A stretch of 64,000 nt of DNA from a virus. Under the pieces are notes generated by a model, which saw nothing but the letters and a program-made list of their open reading frames with translations, was not told the DNA's origin and made no database searches. The stretch lies in IMG/VR virus record IMGVR_UViG_3300027963_000039. One strand, given 5' to 3'. Position numbers and translations under genes: made by a program. Shown piece after piece: positions 19,265 through 64,000 of this stretch (position 1 is its first letter; each line of letters opens with the position of its first letter).

Positions 19265-20740
19265 TTAAACGATTCTCGTACTTGCAAGTAACATCTTTTG
19301 AAAAGATGGTTCCATATTTCTTACAGCAGGTAAATATTTTTTCGGTGGTACTGGACCACCATCACTATTGACTGTTGTATTTTTAACACTAGTAACAGGA
19401 TCGGATCTAGATTGGGGTAAATTTAAATCTACATTTTGTGAATTGACCGCATTTAGTTTTGATCCTAGATTAGGAGTTTCCATTGGTTCTGCTTTTGCAG
19501 CAGGACTGCCATTGAGTTGATTTGAAGATTCTGTGCCACCTGAAGCCATCGGTGCAGCAGGTGTTGCTGGTGCAGGTGTTGCTGGTGCAGGTGTTGCTGG
19601 TGATTCGGTTGTTCCTTGTGGTATAGGTGTAGCTGTTTTTCTAGTACCATCTTCATTATAATTTTCGCCGTATCTCTGGTCCCAAGCAGATGCTCGCACA
19701 CCATGGGCAAGTTTGCTTCCACCTGTTCCTGGCTTTCCTGCAATAAAATCGGCCTTTGATGGAACATTTTCTTTTAGTCCTAAATCGGCATCACTTCTTT
19801 GTGGTGGAATTTCATATACCTTTTCATCATCAGCAATCTTTTGAACCTTTTCTCTACCACCCATTTCCAACAAAAGCTTTTCCTTGGCATCACCTTCTTC
19901 CATGGCTAAAGCTTCTTTAGCTAGTTGGCGACCATTCTTAATAATATCTTCTAGTTTTTCACGGCCGCCCAATTTTTCAATATCTCGGGCACTTCCATTT
20001 TGTAAAATTGCCTGTGCTTCATCAGGACTTAAAGCTTTCATATTAGCCGTGTTTTCAGCTAACTTTTTTAGTCCAAAAGACATTAAAGCAATAAGAGCAA
20101 CCATAGAAGTTGCACCTAATAACGCAAGACCTACCGGACTTGCAAACCAACGTAACACACTCATCAAAGTTTTTGCTACATTAACACCACCAAGTAAATC
20201 CGCCAAAGAAAAACCATCTTCACTTTTTAATTTTACTGCTGTTGCTTTACCTGAATATGGTTTACCGGTAATCGCTTCAATTAATTCTTTGTGTCTTTTT
20301 AATTTCTCAATATCATTTTCTTCTTTATAATTATTTTGTTTTTCTCTACGCTTCCTTTCATCATCAAGTGATTTTTTCATTAACACATAGATTTTTTCTA
20401 GTGTCTTAGAGAAACCGCCAGTTGATTGTAATTGAGGAATTCTAGTTGATCTTTCTCCCATTGCCGAAGCTCGACCACCTCTTTTAACACCTGAAAAGAA
20501 ATCAATTGATTCACGGCTTCTTCCTGTAGCTTTACCCAGCATAGCAGGAGCCCAATTACTACCAAATGTAAGAAACTTGGCAATATTCATTGGATCAAAT
20601 GTTTGCTTGATGCGTGTTGCTCTGGCTTTTGATTTTAAAGAAATAGTCTTTCTAAGTGACGAAAAGGCACCACCCTCTTGTTCAGCAAGAAGTGTGCCAA
20701 AAGATTTGTTTCTTATGTTTTGTGCTTGTCTGTAGTCCAT
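19265..20740 (-). CDS. tape-measure/baseplate-hub-like protein, paralog 2
   Basis: N-terminus paralogous to 20740-22620; helical and hydrophobic middle; PATPA repeats; lies downstream of gp26/gp51. Confidence 0.55.
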   Translation of the reverse strand: MDYRQAQNIRNKSFGTLLAEQEGGAFSSLRKTISLKSKARATRIKQTFDPMNIAKFLTFGSNWAPAMLGKATGRSRESIDFFSGVKRGGRASAMGERSTRIPQLQSTGGFSKTLEKIYVLMKKSLDDERKRREKQNNYKEENDIEKLKRHKELIEAITGKPYSGKATAVKLKSEDGFSLADLLGGVNVAKTLMSVLRWFASPVGLALLGATSMVALIALMSFGLKKLAENTANMKALSPDEAQAILQNGSARDIEKLGGREKLEDIIKNGRQLAKEALAMEEGDAKEKLLLEMGGREKVQKIADDEKVYEIPPQRSDADLGLKENVPSKADFIAGKPGTGGSKLAHGVRASAWDQRYGENYNEDGTRKTATPIPQGTTESPATPAPATPAPATPAAPMASGGTESSNQLNGSPAAKAEPMETPNLGSKLNAVNSQNVDLNLPQSRSDPVTSVKNTTVNSDGGPVPPKKYLPAVRNMEPSFQKMLLASTRIV

Positions 20741-54714: not shown

Positions 54715-56508
54715 ATGGCTACACAACTACAATTAAGACGAGGTAATACGGTAGAAACTTTAGCGTTTACCGGCGCTATTGCTGAAGTTACCGTAGATAC
54801 GGCACAAAACACGTTAACTGTACATAATGGTGTAACACCTGGCGGCATCTATTTGGTCAACAAAGGTCAATTTGAAGCAAACGTTACAAATTTGCAAACT
54901 TTTGCACAAGCAGCTTACAACGCAGCGAATACTGCTGGTGGTGATACTGCTTCCGCAAATACTATTATAATTCAAGGTGTTGATCTTACTCAAAACACCA
55001 ATATTACCGCTGTAAATACGTATGCTGGTTCTGCTTATGCTGCAGCTAATTTGGCATTAGGTATTGATGCAACACAGAATACCAATATTACTGCTGTAAA
55101 CACTTATGCCGGTTCTGCTTATGCTGCAGCTAATTTGGCATTAGGTATTGATGCAACACAGAATACCAATATTACTGCTGTTAATACATATGCTGGAAGT
55201 GCTTATGCTGCAGCTAATTTGGCATTAGGTATTGATGCAACTCAAAACACCAACATCACAGCAGTTAATACATATGCGGCATCAGCTTACGGTGTAGCCA
55301 ATACTGCTACATCCAATATCACGGTAATTCAAGGTGTAGATAATACACAGAATACTAATATTACCGCTGTAAATACGTATGCTGGTTCTGCTTATGCTGC
55401 AGCTAATTTGGCATTAGGTATTGATGCAACTCAAAACACCAACATCACAGCAGTTAATACATATGCGGGTTCTGCATATAACAAAGCAAACAATGCACTT
55501 CCTTTAACTGGTGGTTCAATATCAGGCAGTATAGCAGTATCACAGGACTTAACTGTTTCTGGTAACTTAGTTATTCTTGGAAATACAACCACAATCAACA
55601 CATCATCATTTATTGTTACAGACTCCTTGATTCTTTTAGGTGAAGGTAATTACACATCTGATGTATTGGATATTGGTTTTTCTGGTCACTACAACGATGG
55701 CACTAATGCTCACGCTGGTTTGATCCGTGATGCTGGAACAAAAGAATGGTATTTGTTTAAAGGTTATACACCAGAAGTTGATGCAAATAATAATGTTGAT
55801 CTCAACCACGCATCATTCAGAAAAGCAAACTTACAATCAGACTATGTTAAATCAAATCTAATTGCAACAACAGCTGTAGTAAATGGATTAGATATTTTCA
55901 ATTACGTTACTTCTGCTTACGCAGCTGGTAATACCAATGCAACTAATATTACTGCTGTAAACACATATGCTGCTGGTGCTTACGGTGTAGCTAATACTGC
56001 TACATCCAATATTACGGTAATTCAAGGTGTAGATAATACTCAAAACACCAATATAACAACAGCGAATAATGCCGCATGGGCTGCTTACGCTGCTGGTAAT
56101 ACTAATGCAACAAACATCACAGCGGTCAATACGTATGCTGGAAGTGCTTATGGTGTTGCCAATACTGCTACAAACACATTAGGTTACACATATGTAACTG
56201 CTGGTGGTTATGGTAGTGCAACTGCTGTACCTGCAATCACATTGGCTGCAAACGGTAGAGTTGTTGCTGTAACAAGCACAAATATACAATCCGGTACCAC
56301 TGGCCAAGTTGGTTTGGTACAATTAACTGATTCTGTTACTTCTACTAGCACAACAACTGCTGGCACACCAAACTCTGTTAAAATTGCATATGACAGAGCT
56401 GAAGCGGCTTTCACAGCTGCAAATTCTGCATCTGCCAATGCTTCATCAAGTTCTGGTGCAAGCTTGGCACAAGTGATGTTCTGGAGCGGTTTAGTGTCCG
56501 GTTCTTAA
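54715..56508 (+). CDS. tail fibre with Mtd/hyaluronidase-like N-terminus and 28-aa repeats
   Basis: QLQLRRG...FTGA.AEVTVDT...VHNG.TPGG; GLVQL..S..S...A.TP.SVK collar motif. Confidence 0.75.
   Translation: MATQLQLRRGNTVETLAFTGAIAEVTVDTAQNTLTVHNGVTPGGIYLVNKGQFEANVTNLQTFAQAAYNAANTAGGDTASANTIIIQGVDLTQNTNITAVNTYAGSAYAAANLALGIDATQNTNITAVNTYAGSAYAAANLALGIDATQNTNITAVNTYAGSAYAAANLALGIDATQNTNITAVNTYAASAYGVANTATSNITVIQGVDNTQNTNITAVNTYAGSAYAAANLALGIDATQNTNITAVNTYAGSAYNKANNALPLTGGSISGSIAVSQDLTVSGNLVILGNTTTINTSSFIVTDSLILLGEGNYTSDVLDIGFSGHYNDGTNAHAGLIRDAGTKEWYLFKGYTPEVDANNNVDLNHASFRKANLQSDYVKSNLIATTAVVNGLDIFNYVTSAYAAGNTNATNITAVNTYAAGAYGVANTATSNITVIQGVDNTQNTNITTANNAAWAAYAAGNTNATNITAVNTYAGSAYGVANTATNTLGYTYVTAGGYGSATAVPAITLAANGRVVAVTSTNIQSGTTGQVGLVQLTDSVTSTSTTTAGTPNSVKIAYDRAEAAFTAANSASANASSSSGASLAQVMFWSGLVSGS
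54975..55490 (+). repeat. 84-nt coding tandem repeat (IDATQNTNITAVNTYAGSAYAAANLALG)
   Basis: ATTGATGCAAC recurs at 55063, 55147 and 55231; related copies at 55912-56175. Confidence 0.9.
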
Positions 56509-56519
56509 TATAAAAAATA

Positions 56520-56527
56520 TATAAATA
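56520..56527 (+). promoter_or_regulatory. T4-type late promoter
   Basis: TATAAATA before 56564. Confidence 0.7.
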
Positions 56528-56563: not shown

Positions 56564-56767
56564 ATGTCTATCAAAATTCAAGGAACGGATGTTATTGACG
56601 ATAGTAAAAATGTCGTCAATATTATCAACGTAACTGCTTCTACAAATGTGGAAGCAGGTTCTTATGTCACAGCAGCATACTTCAAAGGTGACGGAAGTCA
56701 ACTAACGAACGCTGGTGCTTCGATAGACAAAGCCTTCTTCTTAAGCAATCTTTTATCTGGCGGATAA
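56564..56767 (+). CDS. short fibre adaptor-like protein
   Basis: MSIKIQGTDVIDDSKN, FKGDGSQLTN; AAGGAG SD. Confidence 0.65.
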   Translation: MSIKIQGTDVIDDSKNVVNIINVTASTNVEAGSYVTAAYFKGDGSQLTNAGASIDKAFFLSNLLSGG

Positions 56768-56810: not shown

Positions 56811-57149
56811 ATGGCCTCAGGTTTAATTCAAAAAACTGCTGTAACCAGTACCACACTTACACCAATTTATTCTGGTGTACCGTCAGGTAAAACTGCAACA
56901 GTTAATATTTTAATTTGTAACACATCAGCAGCCGCAGCATCAATTTCTATTGGTTTAACAAATGCTTCAGCTAATACTTTAGGTACATCAGACTACTTGG
57001 AATATAGAACAATTTTAGCACCAAACGAATCTCTAGAAAGAGGTGGTCTTGTTCTACAATCCGGAGCATACGTTTATGTTTCTGCGGATAGTAATCCATC
57101 GGGAGGTACAATTGCTCTTGGGTGTATTATTACAGGTTTTGAAGTTTAA
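56811..57149 (+). CDS. small virion protein, paralog A
   Basis: YSGVPSGKTATVNILICN...LERGGLVL...GFEV. Confidence 0.7.
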   Translation: MASGLIQKTAVTSTTLTPIYSGVPSGKTATVNILICNTSAAAASISIGLTNASANTLGTSDYLEYRTILAPNESLERGGLVLQSGAYVYVSADSNPSGGTIALGCIITGFEV

Positions 57150-57157
57150 TCTTTCAT

Positions 57158-57165
57158 TATAAATA
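57158..57165 (+). promoter_or_regulatory. T4-type late promoter
   Basis: TATAAATA before 57200. Confidence 0.65.
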
Positions 57166-57199: not shown

Positions 57200-57538
57200 A
57201 TGGCAACGGGTATTATTCAACAAACAAACGTAACAAGCACGTCACTTACATCTATCTATAGTGGTGTACCTTCAGGTAAAACCGCTACAATTAACATTTT
57301 AATTTGTAACGCTGCTAGCAATGCTGCAACAATTACTTTAGGTTTAACAACAGGTGCAACAGGTTCTTTATCTGGAAGCCAGTATATCGAATATAAATCA
57401 ATTTTAGCTCCATATGAAGTTATGGAAAGAGGTGGTCTTGTTCTACAAGCTGGCGCTTATGTTTATTTACAAGCCGAAAGCAATCCTATTGGAACAGGTA
57501 TCAATTTAGCAACAACAATAACAGGATATGAGGTATAA
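57200..57538 (+). CDS. small virion protein, paralog B
   Basis: same length (112 aa) and motifs as 56811; duplicated leader AATCAATACA.TAGGAGCAATTAAATGGC. Confidence 0.7.
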   Translation: MATGIIQQTNVTSTSLTSIYSGVPSGKTATINILICNAASNAATITLGLTTGATGSLSGSQYIEYKSILAPYEVMERGGLVLQAGAYVYLQAESNPIGTGINLATTITGYEV

Positions 57539-57541
57539 AAA

Positions 57542-58717
57542 ATGTCCAGATATTTAAAAGAAGTATCGGCTACGGCCTATAGATTTAAGAAATATTTCAT
57601 CGTACCAGGAACCTATTCCGTTTTTATTCCAGCTTCAGTAAAGCAAGTAAAAACAATTGCTTTTGGTGGCGGCGGAAACTCTTGTACAACCACAATTACG
57701 AATTGCCTAAGCCAACTTCAGCAATGTTGTTGCTGTTGCTATGTCAGAGGTCACTTTTCTGGTGCCGGCGGCGGTTTTACAGAAAAAACCTGGTTCGGTG
57801 TGGGTGGTCAATATGCTTGTATAGTTGTTGGTAGTTCGGAAGGAACTTCTTCTATTTGTTTCTGTGGCTTTGGATCAATCTCCGCAACTGGTGGTACAGG
57901 TTCAGGAACATCAACTAGAACAACTACTGGTGGATCAGGTTCCGGTGGTGAGGTTAATAGATGTGGAAGTCCTGGTTATTGCCGTTGTACTAGCGGATTC
58001 TGTAGGTATGATGCAGTTTATTATAATTGCGCCGCCAGTAATCAAACAGAACACAACAAAATGATGTGTTCCCTTCTTTATCAAGAATTAAGGGGTGTAC
58101 ATTTATCCGGAGGTACTCCAGGAAATTCATTATGTAATAGAGCCGCACTAAGTGATGACACCACCAACGTTTACAGCACTTGTTGTGGATGTGTATCATA
58201 CGGTGTCGCCGGCAATGGCGGTGATAGACCAAACAATTATGCTTACCCTGCTAGCTTTGCATGTAACGGTGTTACCCAGCATACAGTACAACGTTGTACA
58301 TACACAACAGTTCCAGGATATTGCTGGGGATTCCCAGCTTGGTATTGTCAGAGTGCGTTTGCTTTAGGTATACAAAACTGTATTGATCCGTTCTATACCT
58401 TTGACTGGGATCCAATAGCGAACTGCTGTTGCACATGTTTAAGAAGTACCTGTACAAGTCCAGGAACATTTTCCACAACAGGCAGCGGTTCTTGTTTCCT
58501 TAATAACTTTGGTGGTTACAACTATTGTTGTGCATACTGTTTCGTTGAAAGAAATAATGAGTCTTGTACACATACTTTCCTAGGTGCTCCAGGTTTTGGT
58601 TGTGCTCCAGGAACAACAGGCGGCGGTGGTGCTGGTATCTGGAACGGTGATGAAACTAGATGTTTATCCGATTATTCTAGATCAGGTGGTGTTGGTCTTG
58701 TAGTTGTTCACTATTAA
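57542..58717 (+). CDS. Gly-rich, extremely Cys-rich tail-tip/adhesin-like protein
   Basis: F..PGTY..IP..V....AFGGGG start and SGGVGLVVVHY end of Gly-rich phage domains; 37 Cys in 391 aa including CCCCC. Confidence 0.7.
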   Translation: MSRYLKEVSATAYRFKKYFIVPGTYSVFIPASVKQVKTIAFGGGGNSCTTTITNCLSQLQQCCCCCYVRGHFSGAGGGFTEKTWFGVGGQYACIVVGSSEGTSSICFCGFGSISATGGTGSGTSTRTTTGGSGSGGEVNRCGSPGYCRCTSGFCRYDAVYYNCAASNQTEHNKMMCSLLYQELRGVHLSGGTPGNSLCNRAALSDDTTNVYSTCCGCVSYGVAGNGGDRPNNYAYPASFACNGVTQHTVQRCTYTTVPGYCWGFPAWYCQSAFALGIQNCIDPFYTFDWDPIANCCCTCLRSTCTSPGTFSTTGSGSCFLNNFGGYNYCCAYCFVERNNESCTHTFLGAPGFGCAPGTTGGGGAGIWNGDETRCLSDYSRSGGVGLVVVHY

Positions 58718-58756
58718 ACGTTTAAATATTTAAATAAGTAATATAGAGGAAAAAAA

Positions 58757-59245
58757 ATGAAAAAGTTTAGACTTATTCCATATCATCATGACGAAAATTA
58801 TTTTGAAATTATTGAAGAACTTATATTTGAACACGAATACGCTTTTGAAATTACCGATCCTACATCGGTATTAGTGACATCAGAAGATTTTGGTCTCAAT
58901 GATGTTGTTGACAATTCGGGAAAATTGGTTCAAAAGGCCGAAAAACCCGAACCAACTCCAGAAACATGGACTCCAGAATCTGAAAAATTTGAAAATGTTT
59001 TATCCGAAGAAGATAAACAAAAAAAGTTAATATCTTTACAAGAACAAATAACACTCACTCAAATATTGGTTGATAGGTATACTACCAAATTAGCTAAATT
59101 TGCAAATAATGAGACTGTTCAAGTTAATGCTGAAGAAATTAAAAATGCTACTAAAGAAGAACAAATTTCTTGGTATACGGAAGAACTAAAAAAAGCGCAA
59201 GATATTATTGAAAAAGCTAACGAAGAAATTAGTTCATTGAATTGA
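58757..59245 (+). CDS. acidic hypothetical protein, possible fibre assembly chaperone
   Basis: E-rich with coiled-coil C-terminus; directly after the Gly-rich tip gene. Confidence 0.55.
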   Translation: MKKFRLIPYHHDENYFEIIEELIFEHEYAFEITDPTSVLVTSEDFGLNDVVDNSGKLVQKAEKPEPTPETWTPESEKFENVLSEEDKQKKLISLQEQITLTQILVDRYTTKLAKFANNETVQVNAEEIKNATKEEQISWYTEELKKAQDIIEKANEEISSLN

Positions 59246-59271
59246 TTTAATAATTTTTAACTGAGGATACT

Positions 59272-60024
59272 ATGAATACAACTGAAATTATATTAGATGA
59301 AGATTTAAAAAATCATTTGTTTATTGCATCTACGGAGACTACAGGGGCGGACTACTTGAATTCTTGTTTTCAGAAATGTAAAGACGTTTCTGTTTTAGAG
59401 AAAGATCAAGAGCTCTTGTTTTCTCCGTCTTTTTATGTGCCTCCTGTTTTTGAGGATCCAAACTTTTTTATAAAAGAAAGAGAATTACTTGAAACAGGAA
59501 GTGATATTGTATGGACAAATAACAACCTTCAATTGGACTTGAATTGGCAAAAACAAAATAGTAAAGCAAAATTGAGAGTTGGAAAATCAATCTACAATTT
59601 TCTTAGACCACACATACTGCTTGATTATTTTACAAATACTGGATTTCTAATAGTAACCAAAAATCCTTATGCTTTAATTCAAGATTACTTAACATTAGCA
59701 CCTTTACTTGAGTTTGACATAGACAATCTTGCCGAACATGTCTTACAAGGCCTTATAATCCAACAAAAAAATAATTATCTATTAGGTAATAATTTTGCTT
59801 TCACTTATGAAGATATGGTTAGCAAACCAAAATGGGTAGAAGAAAAGATCAAAGAAAAGTATGGTATTGAAGATTTTAAATTCCATTTTGAAGAAAAAAT
59901 ATCAAACAAAGAACAGATTGAAAAATTTACGGATGCTCAAATTGATTTAATCAACGATGTTTTCATCAAGGCTAAAGACGCTTTAGAATATTGGGGATAC
60001 GATTTAGTAAAGAGAGAAGATTAG
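59272..60024 (+). CDS. sulfotransferase-fold protein with degenerate PAPS motifs
   Basis: HLFIASTETTGADYL, VTKNPYA, FTYEDMVSKP, L..WGY pattern. Confidence 0.5.
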   Translation: MNTTEIILDEDLKNHLFIASTETTGADYLNSCFQKCKDVSVLEKDQELLFSPSFYVPPVFEDPNFFIKERELLETGSDIVWTNNNLQLDLNWQKQNSKAKLRVGKSIYNFLRPHILLDYFTNTGFLIVTKNPYALIQDYLTLAPLLEFDIDNLAEHVLQGLIIQQKNNYLLGNNFAFTYEDMVSKPKWVEEKIKEKYGIEDFKFHFEEKISNKEQIEKFTDAQIDLINDVFIKAKDALEYWGYDLVKRED

Positions 60025-60044
60025 GCAATTTTGTTATAAGTTGA

Positions 60045-60073
60045 TTGACAAAATTATGTTTTTATTGTAAAAT
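60045..60073 (+). promoter_or_regulatory. sigma70-type promoter for the glycosyltransferase-carbamoyltransferase pair
   Basis: TTGACA-17 nt-TAAAAT. Confidence 0.65.
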
Positions 60074-60099
60074 TGAATATTTAATTCTGAGGAAATATT

Positions 60100-61032
60100 A
60101 TGTCTTATACTGTTTTTATTATTGATGGTGGTGCAGGTCGAGCGATTGCTGCTATTCCTGCACTTATAAAATACCATTATAAAAACCCTAATGATGATTT
60201 TAAGATTCTTGTGCATGGATGGGATACACTATATTGGGGTATTCCTGAACTGCAAGACAGAACTTTTAATCCAGAAAACAAAGGCACGTTCGAGAATATC
60301 GTTCTCAACTGTAACCGTGTCGTAACTCCAGAACCTTACAAACTCCCATCCTATTTTAAACAAAAGAAGTCTCTAGGTGAGGCTTTCGATGAAACCATCA
60401 ATGAAACAGATGATCATTCCGATTTGGATAAACCAACTATGGTTACAACCAAGATGGAAGAAAAGATGGCAGCTAATATCATTTCTGAGGTTAAAAACAA
60501 ACAGAAAAAAGAACTCACGATTGTCATTCAACCTTATGGACGTGGCGCCAAGGTTGATAATGGCCATGTGATTGATGAAGCTTCACGTTCTTTAGATCCA
60601 GATGCATATCTGTTGTTAGCTAAAAAATTAGCTACGAAGTATAACCTCATCTATTTTGGAGAAAGACAGTTCGCCATAGAACAAGATACATATACACATA
60701 AGATGGAAATGGACTTGAGAGGTTGGGCATCAGTCATTCAATCATCAGATTATTTTGTTGGTTGTGATTCGGTTGGACAATACATGGCAAGATGTTTTAA
60801 TAAACCGGGAACCGTAATTTTTGGTTCAACATTCCCAATCAACACATCTTTTCCTGATCATTTCCAAATTATTGAAAAACCAGGAATCAAAAAATATTCA
60901 CCTATTCGTTTAGTTGGTCTTGATTGCCATCTTGCAGATAGAATGAATGATACTCTAATGGATTTTACAGACGATGAAATTCATGATATCTTTTTGAAAA
61001 TTGTTAAAGACATTGAAAACAAGGTGAAATAA
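60100..61032 (+). CDS. GT9-like (ADP-heptose transferase fold) glycosyltransferase
   Basis: IDGGAGRAIAAIPAL...NP N-terminus and DLRGWASVI..SDYFVGCDS...A....PGTVIFGST.P C-terminus. Confidence 0.7.
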   Translation: MSYTVFIIDGGAGRAIAAIPALIKYHYKNPNDDFKILVHGWDTLYWGIPELQDRTFNPENKGTFENIVLNCNRVVTPEPYKLPSYFKQKKSLGEAFDETINETDDHSDLDKPTMVTTKMEEKMAANIISEVKNKQKKELTIVIQPYGRGAKVDNGHVIDEASRSLDPDAYLLLAKKLATKYNLIYFGERQFAIEQDTYTHKMEMDLRGWASVIQSSDYFVGCDSVGQYMARCFNKPGTVIFGSTFPINTSFPDHFQIIEKPGIKKYSPIRLVGLDCHLADRMNDTLMDFTDDEIHDIFLKIVKDIENKVK

Positions 61033-62741
61033 TGAACGTATTAGGAATAAATCCAGGACACAATGGTTCTGCAGCATTAGTCTCTGACAATAAACTTATG
61101 TTTTATGTTGAGGAAGAACGGTTAAGTCGTAACAAATATGATGGTAATCCTTTCCTTGGCATCATGCAGATTATGGAAGATTACCCACTAGATAGAATCA
61201 TTATTGGTGGAACAGGCCAAAAAGAATCTTTGGGTACTTTGCCTTGGACAGGAGAAGATCCTTTTACATCATTAATTAGAAAAAAATTAAATACGAATGG
61301 TATCGATGTGATGTACGCAGGCGAAAGTCACCACGTTGGCCATGCAGCATTATCTTTTTACAATTCAGGTTTCGATAAAGCAATTTCTATTGTAGTTGAT
61401 GGATGTGGATCTTTTACAGTAAATAAAGAAAATGGTCTTTGTGGATTTGAAACAGATACAGTTTTTGTTTGTGAATATCCTAATAAGTTTGAGTTATTGA
61501 GTAAGAAACTATGTTATACTCCCCAACAAAACTCTATGGAATACTTTGACGGTACCTCAGAATATAGTGTGGGTGCTCCTACAGTTAAGGTTTATGAAGG
61601 CGTTACAGATTATTTGGGTTTTGGTTTTATTGAAGCTGGTAAAACAATGGGTCTAGCACCGTACGGCAAACCAGATGAAAATATTCCACAGTTATACATC
61701 AATGGTCGTGGCAACCAAAACGTATTCATGCCTTTGTATCCTGCTGGAACAAGAATCAACCAGTTACTTAACCCATACCTAAGACAAACTTTTGATCCAA
61801 AAGAATGGCACAGAGATCCAGAAAAGATCCCACAAGTATCCAAAAACTTGGCATACGCAGTTCAAAAAGAATCTCAAGAATTGGTTTTAGAAGCAATCAA
61901 AAAAGCAATCAAACTAACAGGTATCAAAAAAGTTTGTATCTCTGGTGGTTACGGACTAAATTGTACTGCCAATTACTTCTTTAGAAAGAGTCTTCCATCT
62001 GATGTTGAACTTTGGTGTGAACCAATTTCTCATGATGGTGGTACTTCTATTGGTTTGGCTATGATTGCTTGTAGAAACGAAACACAATCATCTGACGTTT
62101 ACAAATCAAAATCAATTTATCTAGGTAAACAATACGATCCATCAACTTATTTAACTGATGTAAACGAAGATGAATTTGAAATTGAATCTGTAGAACCTAA
62201 AGATGTTGCCAAATTAATTTCAGACAGAAATATTGTTGCACTTTTCCAAGGCCGTGCTGAAGCAGGTCCTAGAGCTCTAGGTAACAGGTCAATTCTTTAT
62301 GATCCAAGAGATCCAGACGGCAAACAATTTGTAAATATTGTGAAAGGTCGTGAATGGTTTAGGCCTTTTGCAGGTTCTATGCTTAAAGAAGATGCTAAAC
62401 ATTGGTTCGATATGGCCGGAATGGAAGAATCTCCATTTATGATGTATGCTATTGATGTACAGTCTGACAAAGCACATCTGATTCCTTCTATCATTCATGT
62501 CGATGACACATGCCGTATTCAGACTGTTACAAAAGAACAGAATGAACACTATTACAATTTGATTAGTGAGTTTAAGAATATCACGGGTGTTCCAATCGTG
62601 TTCAATACAAGCTTTAATCTTGCAGGTGAACCATTGGTAGAAACTATCAAAGATGCGTTACACACACTCAGAAGTTCTAAGATGAACTATCTGTATCTAC
62701 CAGAGGTTGGAAAACTTCTGACTAAGAAGGTAAAGAGTTAA
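61032..62741 (+). CDS. O-carbamoyltransferase (NodU/CmcH/TobZ family)
   Basis: EEERLSR.K, HHVGHA, VDGCG, GKTMGLAPYG, SGGYGLNC, GPRALGNRSIL, REWFRPFA, NTSFNLAGEP. Confidence 0.92.
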   Translation: MNVLGINPGHNGSAALVSDNKLMFYVEEERLSRNKYDGNPFLGIMQIMEDYPLDRIIIGGTGQKESLGTLPWTGEDPFTSLIRKKLNTNGIDVMYAGESHHVGHAALSFYNSGFDKAISIVVDGCGSFTVNKENGLCGFETDTVFVCEYPNKFELLSKKLCYTPQQNSMEYFDGTSEYSVGAPTVKVYEGVTDYLGFGFIEAGKTMGLAPYGKPDENIPQLYINGRGNQNVFMPLYPAGTRINQLLNPYLRQTFDPKEWHRDPEKIPQVSKNLAYAVQKESQELVLEAIKKAIKLTGIKKVCISGGYGLNCTANYFFRKSLPSDVELWCEPISHDGGTSIGLAMIACRNETQSSDVYKSKSIYLGKQYDPSTYLTDVNEDEFEIESVEPKDVAKLISDRNIVALFQGRAEAGPRALGNRSILYDPRDPDGKQFVNIVKGREWFRPFAGSMLKEDAKHWFDMAGMEESPFMMYAIDVQSDKAHLIPSIIHVDDTCRIQTVTKEQNEHYYNLISEFKNITGVPIVFNTSFNLAGEPLVETIKDALHTLRSSKMNYLYLPEVGKLLTKKVKS

Positions 62742-63345
62742 CAAACTCTAATAAATTTTGAAAGGTTTTGGTTCTCATTCTCAATTCTCGATTGGCGAAT
62801 GAGTCCAACTTTTCTAAAGTTTCTTGATAGATACCAGTCTTGACTAAAACAGGTACGCAACCTAAAGAGTTTCCAGCTTTAAGGTTGCGTATTTTATTTC
62901 CGACAAAATAACCACCTTTAAATTTTATTCTTTGTTCTTTTTCGGCTTTCTTCATCATGCCAGTATTTGGCATAGAGTAGATATCCTGTTTCATATTGGT
63001 AGTTGAGTACAGTACACCATCAATATTTTGTATTCCGTACTCACCAAATATTTCCATCATACGCATATTTGTACGGTCAACATCATCTACAGTCAATATT
63101 CCCTCACTAATTAGTGGTTCATTGAAGAAAATAGAAACCTTATAACCTTTAAGACGTAAAAGTTTAATGGCTTCTAAAGAACCTTCAACTGGAACAACAT
63201 CATCTGGAGTCTTTATTTGACCATCACGCAATATTACACCGGTTCGTTCAATAGCAACAACGCCAGTATTAAAAACTTCTGGCCAAGGTTCTAAATTCTT
63301 AAATCCTGAAACAGTTGCAATTTTGTTATCGTATCTTCCCATCAT
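62722..63345 (-). CDS. GmhB/HisB-like HAD IIIA protein with substituted catalytic residues
   Basis: AIERTGVI, GSLEAIKLL...GY, PNTGMM, FVGNKIRNLKAG..LG..PVLVKTG. Confidence 0.7.
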   Translation of the reverse strand: MMGRYDNKIATVSGFKNLEPWPEVFNTGVVAIERTGVILRDGQIKTPDDVVPVEGSLEAIKLLRLKGYKVSIFFNEPLISEGILTVDDVDRTNMRMMEIFGEYGIQNIDGVLYSTTNMKQDIYSMPNTGMMKKAEKEQRIKFKGGYFVGNKIRNLKAGNSLGCVPVLVKTGIYQETLEKLDSFANRELRMRTKTFQNLLEFVNSLPS

Positions 63346-63434: not shown

Positions 63435-64000
63435 ATGGCCACAATTACCACTAGAGTTGCTTTTAAAGAATATTGTTTACGCAGATTAGGTTTTCCAGTC
63501 ATCGATATTAACGTGGATGATGACCAAGTGGAAGACCGAATTGATGATGCCTTACAGTACTGGCAAGATTACCATTTTGATGGTCTACAAAAGGTCTATT
63601 ACATCAAAAGAGTGGAACAAACCGATGTTAACCAAAAGTATATAGATTTAAGCAATGTTACCGACAGTTCAAATAACGCACTAGAGATTGTTGGTATATC
63701 ACGTATATTTCCAATTCAAGATTCTCAGGCAACTATTAATATGTTTGACCTTAGATATCAACTAAGATTAAACGAATTGTATGACTTCACATCAGCGTCC
63801 TACATCAACTACACACTAACACAACAGCATCTACGTTCATTGGAGTTAATGTTTACTGGAGAAGTTCCTATTCGATTCCAAAGACATATGCGTAGGTTGT
63901 ACATAGATTGGGCCTGGGGTTCATCACAATCACCAGTTGGTACTGTGGTAGTTGCCGAAGCTTATGCAAATATCGACCCTACGGTATACACCAGAGTTTG
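63435..64000 (+). CDS. gp13: neck protein, 3'-truncated by the window edge
   Basis: MATITTRVAFKEYCLRRLGFPVIDINVDDDQVEDRIDDALQYWQDYHFDG...MFDLRYQLRLN. Confidence 0.9.
   Translation, partial: MATITTRVAFKEYCLRRLGFPVIDINVDDDQVEDRIDDALQYWQDYHFDGLQKVYYIKRVEQTDVNQKYIDLSNVTDSSNNALEIVGISRIFPIQDSQATINMFDLRYQLRLNELYDFTSASYINYTLTQQHLRSLELMFTGEVPIRFQRHMRRLYIDWAWGSSQSPVGTVVVAEAYANIDPTVYTRV

Follow-up and report, generated by a model that had tools for sequence, protein, structure and literature searches.

A phage-specific GT9-fold transferase with arginine at the catalytic aspartate position accompanies cysteine-rich tail-fibre proteins in marine T4-like phages

Results

We analyzed a 64,000-nucleotide stretch (here called the window) of IMGVR_UViG_3300027963_000039, a record from an uncultured marine T4-like phage. 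The window has a G+C content of about 36% and carries the baseplate, fibre, and neck genes of a T4-like myovirus. Between positions 57,542 and 63,345 lies a cassette in which the gene for a Cys-rich fibre-tip protein is followed by genes for a transferase of glycosyltransferase family 9 (GT9) fold and an O-carbamoyltransferase. A first-pass annotation of this DNA had described six open reading frames (ORFs) here and proposed that the phage attaches a sugar, possibly a heptose, to Cys residues of its tail tip and then carbamoylates it. All six ORFs are present where they were described, and the series that follows the tip gene is real and forms a conserved unit. On the plus strand, the Cys/Gly-rich fibre-tip protein (57542..58717; 391 amino acids, 37 Cys, 60 Gly) precedes an acidic, Cys-free ORF of 162 amino acids without a family match (58757..59245), a sulfotransferase-fold ORF of 250 amino acids (59272..60024), the 310-residue heptosyltransferase-like transferase (60100..61032), and a 569-residue O-carbamoyltransferase of the NodU/CmcH/TobZ type (61032..62741), whose start overlaps the transferase stop. 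Convergent with the latter on the minus strand is a 207-residue GmhB-like HAD protein (62722..63345).

The tip protein stands far above the other ORFs in its Cys content, as the annotation had claimed. Cys makes up 9.5% of its residues, compared with 0.5% (88 Cys in 17,350 residues) in the remaining 50 ORFs of the window, and part of it occurs in runs: CCCCC at residues 62-66, CCC at 295-297, and two CC pairs. Fourteen structural ORFs in the window have no Cys at all. Virion ORFs of 491, 626, 1036, 577, 623, and 597 amino acids between positions 19265 and 56508 all contain zero Cys. This near-absence of Cys from the other virion proteins suggests selection against it elsewhere in the particle. 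In close homologues of the tip protein, Cys is retained at 73-86% of positions, compared with 51-64% overall identity, and 21 of the 37 Cys residues are invariant across 10 homologues. An AlphaFold2 model (pLDDT 41) is confident for residues ~11-143 and the last strand and leaves 144-381 unmodelled. Comparison with Gly_rich_2 tail-fibre clusters gave an Atlas feature score, which is derived from a language model, of 0.94 and TM scores of 0.42-0.47 for this mostly unmodelled structure; a Pfam search that included PF21722 (Gly_rich_2) returned no match. As modelled, a Gly_rich_2-like frame (residues ~11-143 plus the C-terminal strand) would enclose the Cys-rich region at 144-381.

The transferase has a GT9 fold. 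Its AlphaFold2 model reaches a pLDDT of 97.6, the top 30 Foldseek matches to the model are all GT9 enzymes, and VIA gave Z scores of 24.4 for the Veillonella GT9 protein 3tov, 22.6 for WaaF, 21.4 for TibC, and 19.9 for WaaC, compared with at most 12.2 for other GT-B folds. At the sequence level, the window transferase has no Pfam match at E ≤0.1, and its only NCBIfam match is TIGR02201 (E = 0.011, far under the cut-off). Thirty of 62 aligned relatives match Pfam PF01075 (GT9; best E = 2.4e-8), and the family profile matches WaaF and WaaC at 0.004-0.05. The family comprises 337 clusters at 50% identity (E ≤0.001).

In WaaC, Asp13 is the catalytic Asp at the start of helix alpha-1 and acts on sugar hydroxyls. 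At the corresponding position, the window enzyme has Arg14, encoded by the codon CGA at 60139..60141 (plus strand) within IIDGGAGRAIAAIPAL. MAFFT places G13-R14 over G12-D13 of Escherichia coli WaaC and over the GD of WaaF, and HMMER gives the same pairing. In the VIA alignments, model residue 2 falls at WaaC residue 1, which puts Arg14 at D13, and model residue 1 falls at TibC residue 96, which makes Arg14 adjoin D110, the catalytic base of TibC (PMC4358343). When the family was compared with the single WaaC and WaaF sequences by hhalign, only the C-terminal domain was aligned; for the N-terminal equivalence we rely on MAFFT, HMMER, and the structural ranges, which agree with one another and with the original assignment of Arg to the WaaC Asp13 position.

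Arg14 belongs to a conserved motif: conservation across 62 diverse relatives is at least 90% for each of G10, G11, G13, and R14, and Arg14 is kept in 58/58 IMG/VR enzymes. In the 62-relative alignment, P79, Y80, D159, D223, and S224 are invariant and E78, E120, R163, and R207 nearly so; the donor-side pair D223-S224 belongs to the C-domain motif D-(S/T)-G-x-x-H and aligns with its D-(S/T)-G part in WaaC and WaaF. Judged from these sequences, the transferase seems to be active and kept under selection, its donor side intact and its acceptor side remodelled. Because it lacks the catalytic Asp found in both GT9 branches, we file the enzyme as a GT9-fold relative in its own phage-specific GGxGR clade. 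It appears to be neither a WaaC-type nor a BAHT-type member, and no BAHT profile is found among its NCBIfam matches at E ≤0.1. Where a base could lie is suggested by the model, in which strand beta-1 spans residues 4-8 and beta-4 residues 73-75, with E78 two residues past beta-4. Because beta-4 neighbours beta-1 in a Rossmann sheet, E78 is probably near Arg14 and could be either a relocated base or a salt-bridge partner of Arg14; E78, E120, and D159 could all be considered base candidates. In the window enzyme and those nearest to it, positions 228 and 251 hold Tyr and Phe, whereas His and Tyr stand there in 54 of 58 relatives. In a clade that also has a degenerate GmhB-like gene, these residues may reflect a changed donor or a relaxed function.

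Co-occurrence of the GGxGR transferase with Cys-rich proteins, named in the first-pass annotation as a check on its proposal, was found well above background. Using a 20-sequence subset of the 62-sequence alignment as query, we found more than 593 IMG/VR loci with a transferase relative, took 80, and scored the 59 with at least 4 kb upstream. A partner was defined as an ORF of at least 200 amino acids on the same strand, at most 6 kb upstream, with at least 6% (or at least 4%) Cys. Such ORFs occur in 40/59 loci at the higher threshold and in 50/59 at the lower, compared with 2 and 11, respectively, of the 611 other ORFs in these loci. The transferase is carried by 24 of 50,697 phage records (isolate and single-cell), and all 24 have a Cys-enriched ORF upstream. 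A tblastn search of these records with the window's own Cys-rich protein returned nothing, probably because of composition filtering, and members of the P-SSM2 and S-CAM3 Cys-rich families served as queries instead; both families were found only in transferase-positive phages. Other positive records have upstream ORFs with 9.6-10.7% (AG-345-O18), 9.2% (AG-345-P14), and 4.1% Cys (HJ05). In the transferase tree, three clades are wholly high-Cys (6/6, 12/12, and 17/17), and a further clade, of 15, is mixed. Whether their neighbours are high-, mid-, or low-Cys, the enzymes are identical at R14, E78, Y80, E120, D159, R163, D223, and S224, and we found no alignment column that separates those beside Cys-rich proteins from those beside Cys-poor ones.

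The GGxGR clade is phage-specific and almost absent from cellular genomes. In 185,579 prokaryote species represented by one genome each, we found 10 loci, all in metagenome-assembled genomes (MAGs); a Cys-rich ORF is present in 8/8 of the loci inspected, and none of these lies in a lipopolysaccharide (LPS) cluster. One of them, L097:6031-11308 (JAHFPP010000006.1, a Woesearchaeota MAG), carries a Cys-rich, Gly-rich protein of 593 amino acids with 52 Cys and a leader resembling those of twin-arginine translocation (KREFIKKGLLAIGLGGAAALL), a GGAGR transferase, a carbamoyltransferase, and a degenerate-motif HAD protein. It is flanked by genes for phosphoglycerate mutase, enolase, Cbf5, endonuclease III, MCM, and L10e, with no phage genes near. 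Archaea have no LPS; unless the contig is chimeric, the four genes were transferred as a unit into an organism without it. Cassette-bearing phage fibre modules are also binned across unrelated phyla (L099 and L104 in a Neomarinimicrobiota MAG, L100 and L103 in Methanobacteriota MAGs), in one case as identical loci on contigs of 335 kb and 153 kb; these look like mis-binning or assembly duplication.

Two variants of the arrangement were seen among relatives. In the clade of L035:12633-15816, L037:2074-5765, and L039:5852-9958, the enzyme pair stands amid sulfotransferases (Sulfotransfer_3, 1.6e-15) and GT1- and GT2-like glycosyltransferases, in a larger glycan-assembly island adjoining Gly-rich, Cys-poor fibres. 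In Aeromonas phage HJ05, a cultured non-marine phage (OQ594355.1; L093:7225-9840), a 559-residue ORF has 23 Cys (4.1%), compared with about 0.2% in the other structural ORFs, and immediately after it comes a distant GT9-like gene whose motif reads GGLGR; no carbamoyltransferase was seen in this locus.

The Cys-rich partner proteins of relatives range from 280 to 2,378 amino acids, contain about 10% Cys, and mostly cannot be aligned with one another, although some share an N-terminal segment. The largest have 1,458 residues with 137 Cys and 2,378 residues with 134 Cys, and a Pfam search of eight giant partners returned no domain. Cys counts are odd in 18 of 44 partners; CC (z = 8.3) and CxC (z = 3.5) are enriched, whereas CxxC is not. 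Judged from sequence, the odd counts and the spacing agree poorly with disulfides in which every Cys is paired, or with zinc or iron-sulfur sites of the classical kind. Charged residues are few and aromatic residues plentiful. Metallothionein-type proteins contain about 30% Cys, and a metallothionein-like reading was set aside on account of the roughly 10% Cys and the abundant aromatics. In four relatives, two of them complete, a search for the DsbA family found none, and the only glutaredoxin was in genome G004; a search for Erv1/ALR was blank in all four, as were its controls, which makes it uninformative.

The remaining cassette proteins are intact to differing degrees. The carbamoyltransferase is, as annotated, a full-length NodU/TobZ-type enzyme: it matches both Pfam domains (Carbam_trans_C, 7e-61; Carbam_trans_N, 8.5e-22) and phrog_1601 (4.9e-151 over residues 1-558), and an HHVGH motif is readable in its translation. 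It matches O-carbamoyltransferases of hydroxyl substrates at 1e-52 to 1e-45 (NovN, GdmN, and TobZ at about 1e-52 to 1e-47) and HypF faintly (E = 0.029). By analogy with its family and with the WapO precedent discussed below, its substrate would be a sugar hydroxyl. With few exceptions among the sampled loci, the carbamoyltransferase gene and the GT9-like gene are translationally adjacent. The GmhB-like ORF does have GmhB as its best NCBIfam match (NF006506, 1.6e-22), but at 79.9 bits this is under the cut-off of 178, and its catalytic residues are lost: DxD has become ExT (ERT), Lys has become Met, and GDxxxD has become GNxxxN, whereas GmhB of most relatives keeps DRDG, KPN, and GDxxxD.

The 250-residue ORF matches Sulfotransfer_3 weakly (E = 0.029; 15.1 bits versus a cut-off of 27), with an Atlas feature score of 0.98 to Sulfotransfer_3 clusters. 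It shares KNPY and YEDM..P patches, in the same order, with a bona fide phage sulfotransferase. Its N-terminal loop has the sequence STETTGA, in which the customary Lys/Arg is missing, and a basic 5'-phosphosulfate loop is not evident. Its sequence leaves sulfotransferase activity uncertain. The 162-residue ORF had been called chaperone-like. Its position is that of a protein with a tail-assembly-chaperone domain in AG-345-O18 (PF16778, 1.2e-9; locus L091), but it has no similarity to that protein or to the P-SSM2 spacer ORF and no family in profile searches of Pfam, PHROG, and NCBIfam.

In many relatives, the carbamoyltransferase gene is followed by genes for a canonical GmhB, an adenylyltransferase, a PfkB kinase, a cupin, and an epimerase. 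The record closest to the window, G001, spans only 52 kb; as a proxy for the window's clade we used G002, a complete 168-kb relative whose transferase is 79% identical. In G002, the adenylyltransferase, kinase, cupin, and epimerase genes lie 34 kb from the cassette, beside gp44, regA, and hsp20. At this second site (L090:3360-7772), another carbamoyltransferase is split into an N-terminal ORF of 310 and a C-terminal ORF of 199 amino acids and is followed by the adenylyltransferase, PfkB kinase, cupin, epimerase, and rubrerythrin genes, among replication genes. The cupin may take the place of GmhA, the isomerase that is absent, and the same supply set probably exists beyond the end of this window. 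Based on the co-occurring genes for an HldE-like kinase, adenylyltransferase, and GmhB, the donor of the transferase is most likely ADP-heptose. No psbA was found in the complete relatives, so the host is probably a heterotroph and not a cyanobacterium.

The cassette follows the distal fibre-module genes. A fibre protein of 597 amino acids without Cys (54715-56508) has Mtd_N and Phage_fiber_2 domains and about six tandem copies of a unit of about 28 amino acids (GIDATQNTNITAVNTYAGSAYAAANLAL). After it come three small ORFs on the plus strand. The first encodes 67 amino acids (56564..56767), and its start (MSIKIQGTDVIDD..NV) resembles, by eye and unscored, the N-terminal attachment segment of giant Cys-rich fibre proteins, of which L038 begins MSYKINGTIVVDNSRNV and L012 begins MAIKIQGTTIIDDAANV. 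The other two are paralogous 112-residue fibre-module proteins, one at 56811..57149 (phrog_11338 tail fibre, 8e-7; counterparts P-SSM2 gp302 and S-CAM3 gp160) and one at 57200..57538, which stops 3 nucleotides before the Cys-rich gene. The downstream edge of the cassette is marked by the start of a gp13-like neck gene (63435..63998, plus strand; phrog_211), whose counterparts in L003 and L004 match PF26809 (Phage_T4_gp13).

Promoter-like matches lie on both sides of the tip gene. The T4-type late-promoter motif TATAAATA occurs on the plus strand at 56520..56527, in the gap before the distal fibre-module genes, and again at 57158..57165, upstream of the 112-residue ORF that runs into the Cys-rich gene. 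The window holds 6 matches to this motif, all on the plus strand, with 6.6 expected by chance; with a count not above chance, these motifs would serve as a lead only. In the 75-nucleotide gap before the transferase gene, a sigma-70-like match (TTGACA-17-TAAAAT, 11/12; 60045..60073, plus strand) is the best in the region, as a consensus match only. Taken as they stand, the matches would be compatible with early expression of the enzymes, late expression, or both.

Discussion

The results presented above led us to consider what a cassette of this kind could do. We see roughly an even chance that this phage-specific cassette decorates the neighbouring fibre tip with a heptose-type sugar that is probably carbamoylated. 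According to this explanation, the cassette, at the distal end of the tail-fibre module, would serve to tailor a protein, and its Cys/Gly-rich product would be the fibre tip that binds the receptor, a tip of the glycine-rich-domain type. The GT9-fold enzyme would probably transfer a heptose-type sugar from a nucleotide donor onto the tip in the cytoplasm of the infected cell, the donor most likely being ADP-heptose made by phage genes that, in the window's clade, would lie elsewhere in the genome. The NodU/TobZ-type enzyme could then O-carbamoylate the sugar, much as WapO is proposed to do for heptose II of the Pseudomonas LPS core. The attachment may be to O (Ser/Thr), to S (Cys), or to another atom; which donor and which protein acceptor are used, and in what order the steps run, is our inference. 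In AG-345-O18, the tail-assembly-chaperone domain between the Cys-rich gene and the transferase supports such a function. At the level of the system, gene content and linkage argue well for a cassette that tailors a virion protein and is tied to Cys-rich fibre tips.

The closest working analogy would be TibC/AAH with TibA/AIDA-I, in which bacterial enzymes heptosylate adhesins (PDB 4RAP/4RB4; PMC4358343). There too, the gene for a GT9-like GT-B enzyme lies beside the gene for an adhesin-type partner. TibC hyper-glycosylates its co-encoded adhesin with ADP-heptose in the cytoplasm; genomic linkage suggests such an acceptor for the phage enzyme. The structural match extends over model residues 1-310 and only residues 96-391 of TibC, the phage enzyme being without the N-terminal extension of about 95 residues. 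TibC keeps its catalytic Asp110 where the phage enzyme has Arg, and its partner is a Ser-rich beta-helix, in contrast to a Cys/Gly-rich fibre tip that is accompanied by a carbamoyltransferase.

The closest chemical analogy would be WaaC/WaaF together with WapO, a putative heptose 7-O-carbamoyltransferase to which the O-carbamoylated heptose of the Pseudomonas LPS core is attributed (PMC8005017). The GT9 fold and the donor D-S/T-G motif are common to both systems, as are a supply pathway for ADP-heptose and an enzyme of the NodU family with a proposed role in heptose carbamoylation. They differ in that WaaC has Asp13 and the phage enzyme Arg, and in that the phage clade is restricted to phages and was found in no LPS cluster; an acceptor of the Kdo-lipid A type is unlikely. 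Virion glycosylation itself is reportedly known from mycobacteriophages (Freeman et al. 2023), where glycosyltransferase genes are said to stand beside the structural genes that they target. That system differs in its glycosyltransferase families, sugars, and targets (capsid and tail tube) and has neither carbamoylation nor a Cys-rich target. A prediction by comparative genomics had also made fibre-type proteins the substrates of co-encoded tailoring enzymes, including sulfotransferases: Iyer et al. 2010 predicted hydroxylase-sulfotransferase tailoring of collagen-like and tail-collar proteins (PMC2938197), with 2-oxoglutarate dioxygenases and other substrates than those considered here.

True orthologues of the cassette are already on record in cyanomyoviruses. 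Sullivan et al. 2010 listed T4-GC 302-308 as cyanophage LPS genes of unknown role (PMC3037559); these correspond to P-SSM2 gp307-313 and occur also in S-SSM7, S-CAM1, S-CAM3, Sf-FS3, and S-SSM6a. The shared order is fibre gene, small ORFs of about 106 amino acids, Cys-rich ORFs, spacer ORF, GGAGR transferase, and carbamoyltransferase. P-SSM2 and S-CAM3 have two or three ORFs with 24-36 Cys (8-12%) and carry ADP-heptose-type genes after the carbamoyltransferase. In contrast, the window's clade is without the adjacent kinase, adenylyltransferase, cupin, and epimerase, its GmhB-like gene is degenerate, and a sulfotransferase-like ORF and the 162-residue ORF have been inserted. None of the papers searched describes hyper-Cys fibre proteins or their linkage to these enzymes.

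Several observations weigh against glycosylation of the tip. The transferase is without the catalytic Asp of WaaC and TibC, so its mechanism cannot be copied from them. In 9/58 loci, the GGAGR enzyme and the carbamoyltransferase stand beside fibre genes with less than 4% Cys; at L035, the four upstream proteins have 23% Gly and 0-1 Cys. The first-pass annotation had named occurrence of the transferase independently of Cys-rich proteins as evidence against its proposal, and these loci are partly that, amid strong linkage elsewhere. They imply either that the Cys-rich protein is not an obligatory partner or that the acceptor feature is not Cys. The window's own clade combines a degenerate GmhB-like gene, Tyr228 and Phe251, and supply genes that are not adjacent, and its function may have drifted. 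The sigma-70-like match before the transferase would also fit early expression and a host-directed role.

The first-pass annotation also addressed where the sugar would be attached. It read Arg14 as suited to a thiolate acceptor; Arg14 would then stabilize the thiolate of a fibre-tip Cys instead of a general base being used, and the S-linked heptose would subsequently be carbamoylated. Such a role is consistent with an Arg so widely kept at the catalytic-Asp position (at least 90% of the 62 relatives, every one of the 58 IMG/VR enzymes), with partners that hold about 10% Cys while their sequences diverge past alignment, with odd Cys counts and enrichment of CC and not of CxxC, and with the finding of no DsbA family gene in two complete relatives. 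The step from Arg to thiolate is not supported, however: the same active-site residues occur in enzymes beside fibres with 0-1 Cys, and E78 (probably near Arg14), E120, or D159 could supply a base. The Cys positions are conserved above average, which would fit structural roles at least as well as acceptor sites, and we know of no S-glycosyltransferase that is a GT9 enzyme or needs such an Arg. We consider S-heptosylation quite unlikely. The heptose and carbamoylation parts of the proposal fared better, given the ADP-heptose-type supply genes in relatives and the O-carbamoyl-heptose precedent (PMC8005017). Sugar-independent modification of the thiols by the carbamoyltransferase, as HypF acts on HypE to give S-carbamoyl or thiocyanate groups, is highly improbable; TobZ/NodU enzymes share the Kae1/YrdC architecture with HypF, but the HypF match is marginal beside the far better O-carbamoyltransferase matches, and translational adjacency to the GT9-like gene points away from a sugar-independent role.

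Two further explanations detach the enzymes from the Cys residues or from the virion. The Cys may be purely structural, forming disulfide or metal cross-links that harden a hypervariable tip in oxic seawater, with the enzyme pair modifying another protein or residue. That Cys exceeds other residues in conservation among close homologues, with 21/37 invariant in 10, that the pair also occurs beside Cys-poor, Gly-rich fibres, that the frame resembles the Gly_rich_2/ALK-GRD type typical of tail-fibre tips, and that CC plus CxC enrichment is reminiscent of metal-thiolate proteins would all suit it; we nevertheless judge it rather unlikely, as it leaves unexplained why hyper-Cys fibres are confined to transferase-positive phages among the 50,697 records and why four genes traveled jointly into an archaeal genome, and odd Cys counts are common. 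Just as improbable, in our view, is that the fibre region is an accessory-gene hotspot and that the enzymes have the host envelope, or a glycan that is free or lipid-linked, as their target, for example to block superinfection or change a receptor. The LPS-gene listing of Sullivan et al. 2010 (PMC3037559) would favor this, as would the action of GT9 enzymes and WapO on the LPS core, the one clade in which the pair lies amid GT1, GT2, and sulfotransferase genes as in a glycan-assembly cluster, the sigma-70-like match, and the placement of the nucleotide-sugar genes of the complete relative among replication genes. It fits poorly with a GGxGR clade that was found in no bacterial LPS cluster and whose cellular matches are phage-like contigs or an LPS-free archaeal locus, with a linkage to Cys-enriched fibre genes that is far above background across clades, and with the absence of the catalytic Asp used on sugar hydroxyls.

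The cassette would extend known kinds of system, namely protein heptosylation and virion glycosylation. For cyanophage LPS genes whose role has been unassigned since 2010 (PMC3037559), the core pair is now linked to a single, unusual class of fibre protein. The module is phage-specific and widespread, with more than 593 IMG/VR loci; it is present in the cultured phages P-SSM2, S-SSM7, S-CAM1, S-CAM3, and Sf-FS3 and, more distantly, in Aeromonas phage HJ05, which may prove practical for laboratory work. That a reducing cytoplasm should yield proteins of as many as 1,458 residues with roughly 10% Cys is puzzling in its own right. An Arg-for-Asp enzyme would add a new mechanistic subclass to GT9, regardless of the atom to which it attaches the sugar. 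If S-heptosylation were true, it would be a protein glycosylation chemistry undescribed in any organism, and marine phages would gain a glycosidase-resistant, hypervariable, sugar-coated adhesin. If the tips do carry sugars, a post-translational coat that is invisible to sequence-based prediction of host range would govern how abundant ocean phages recognize their hosts.

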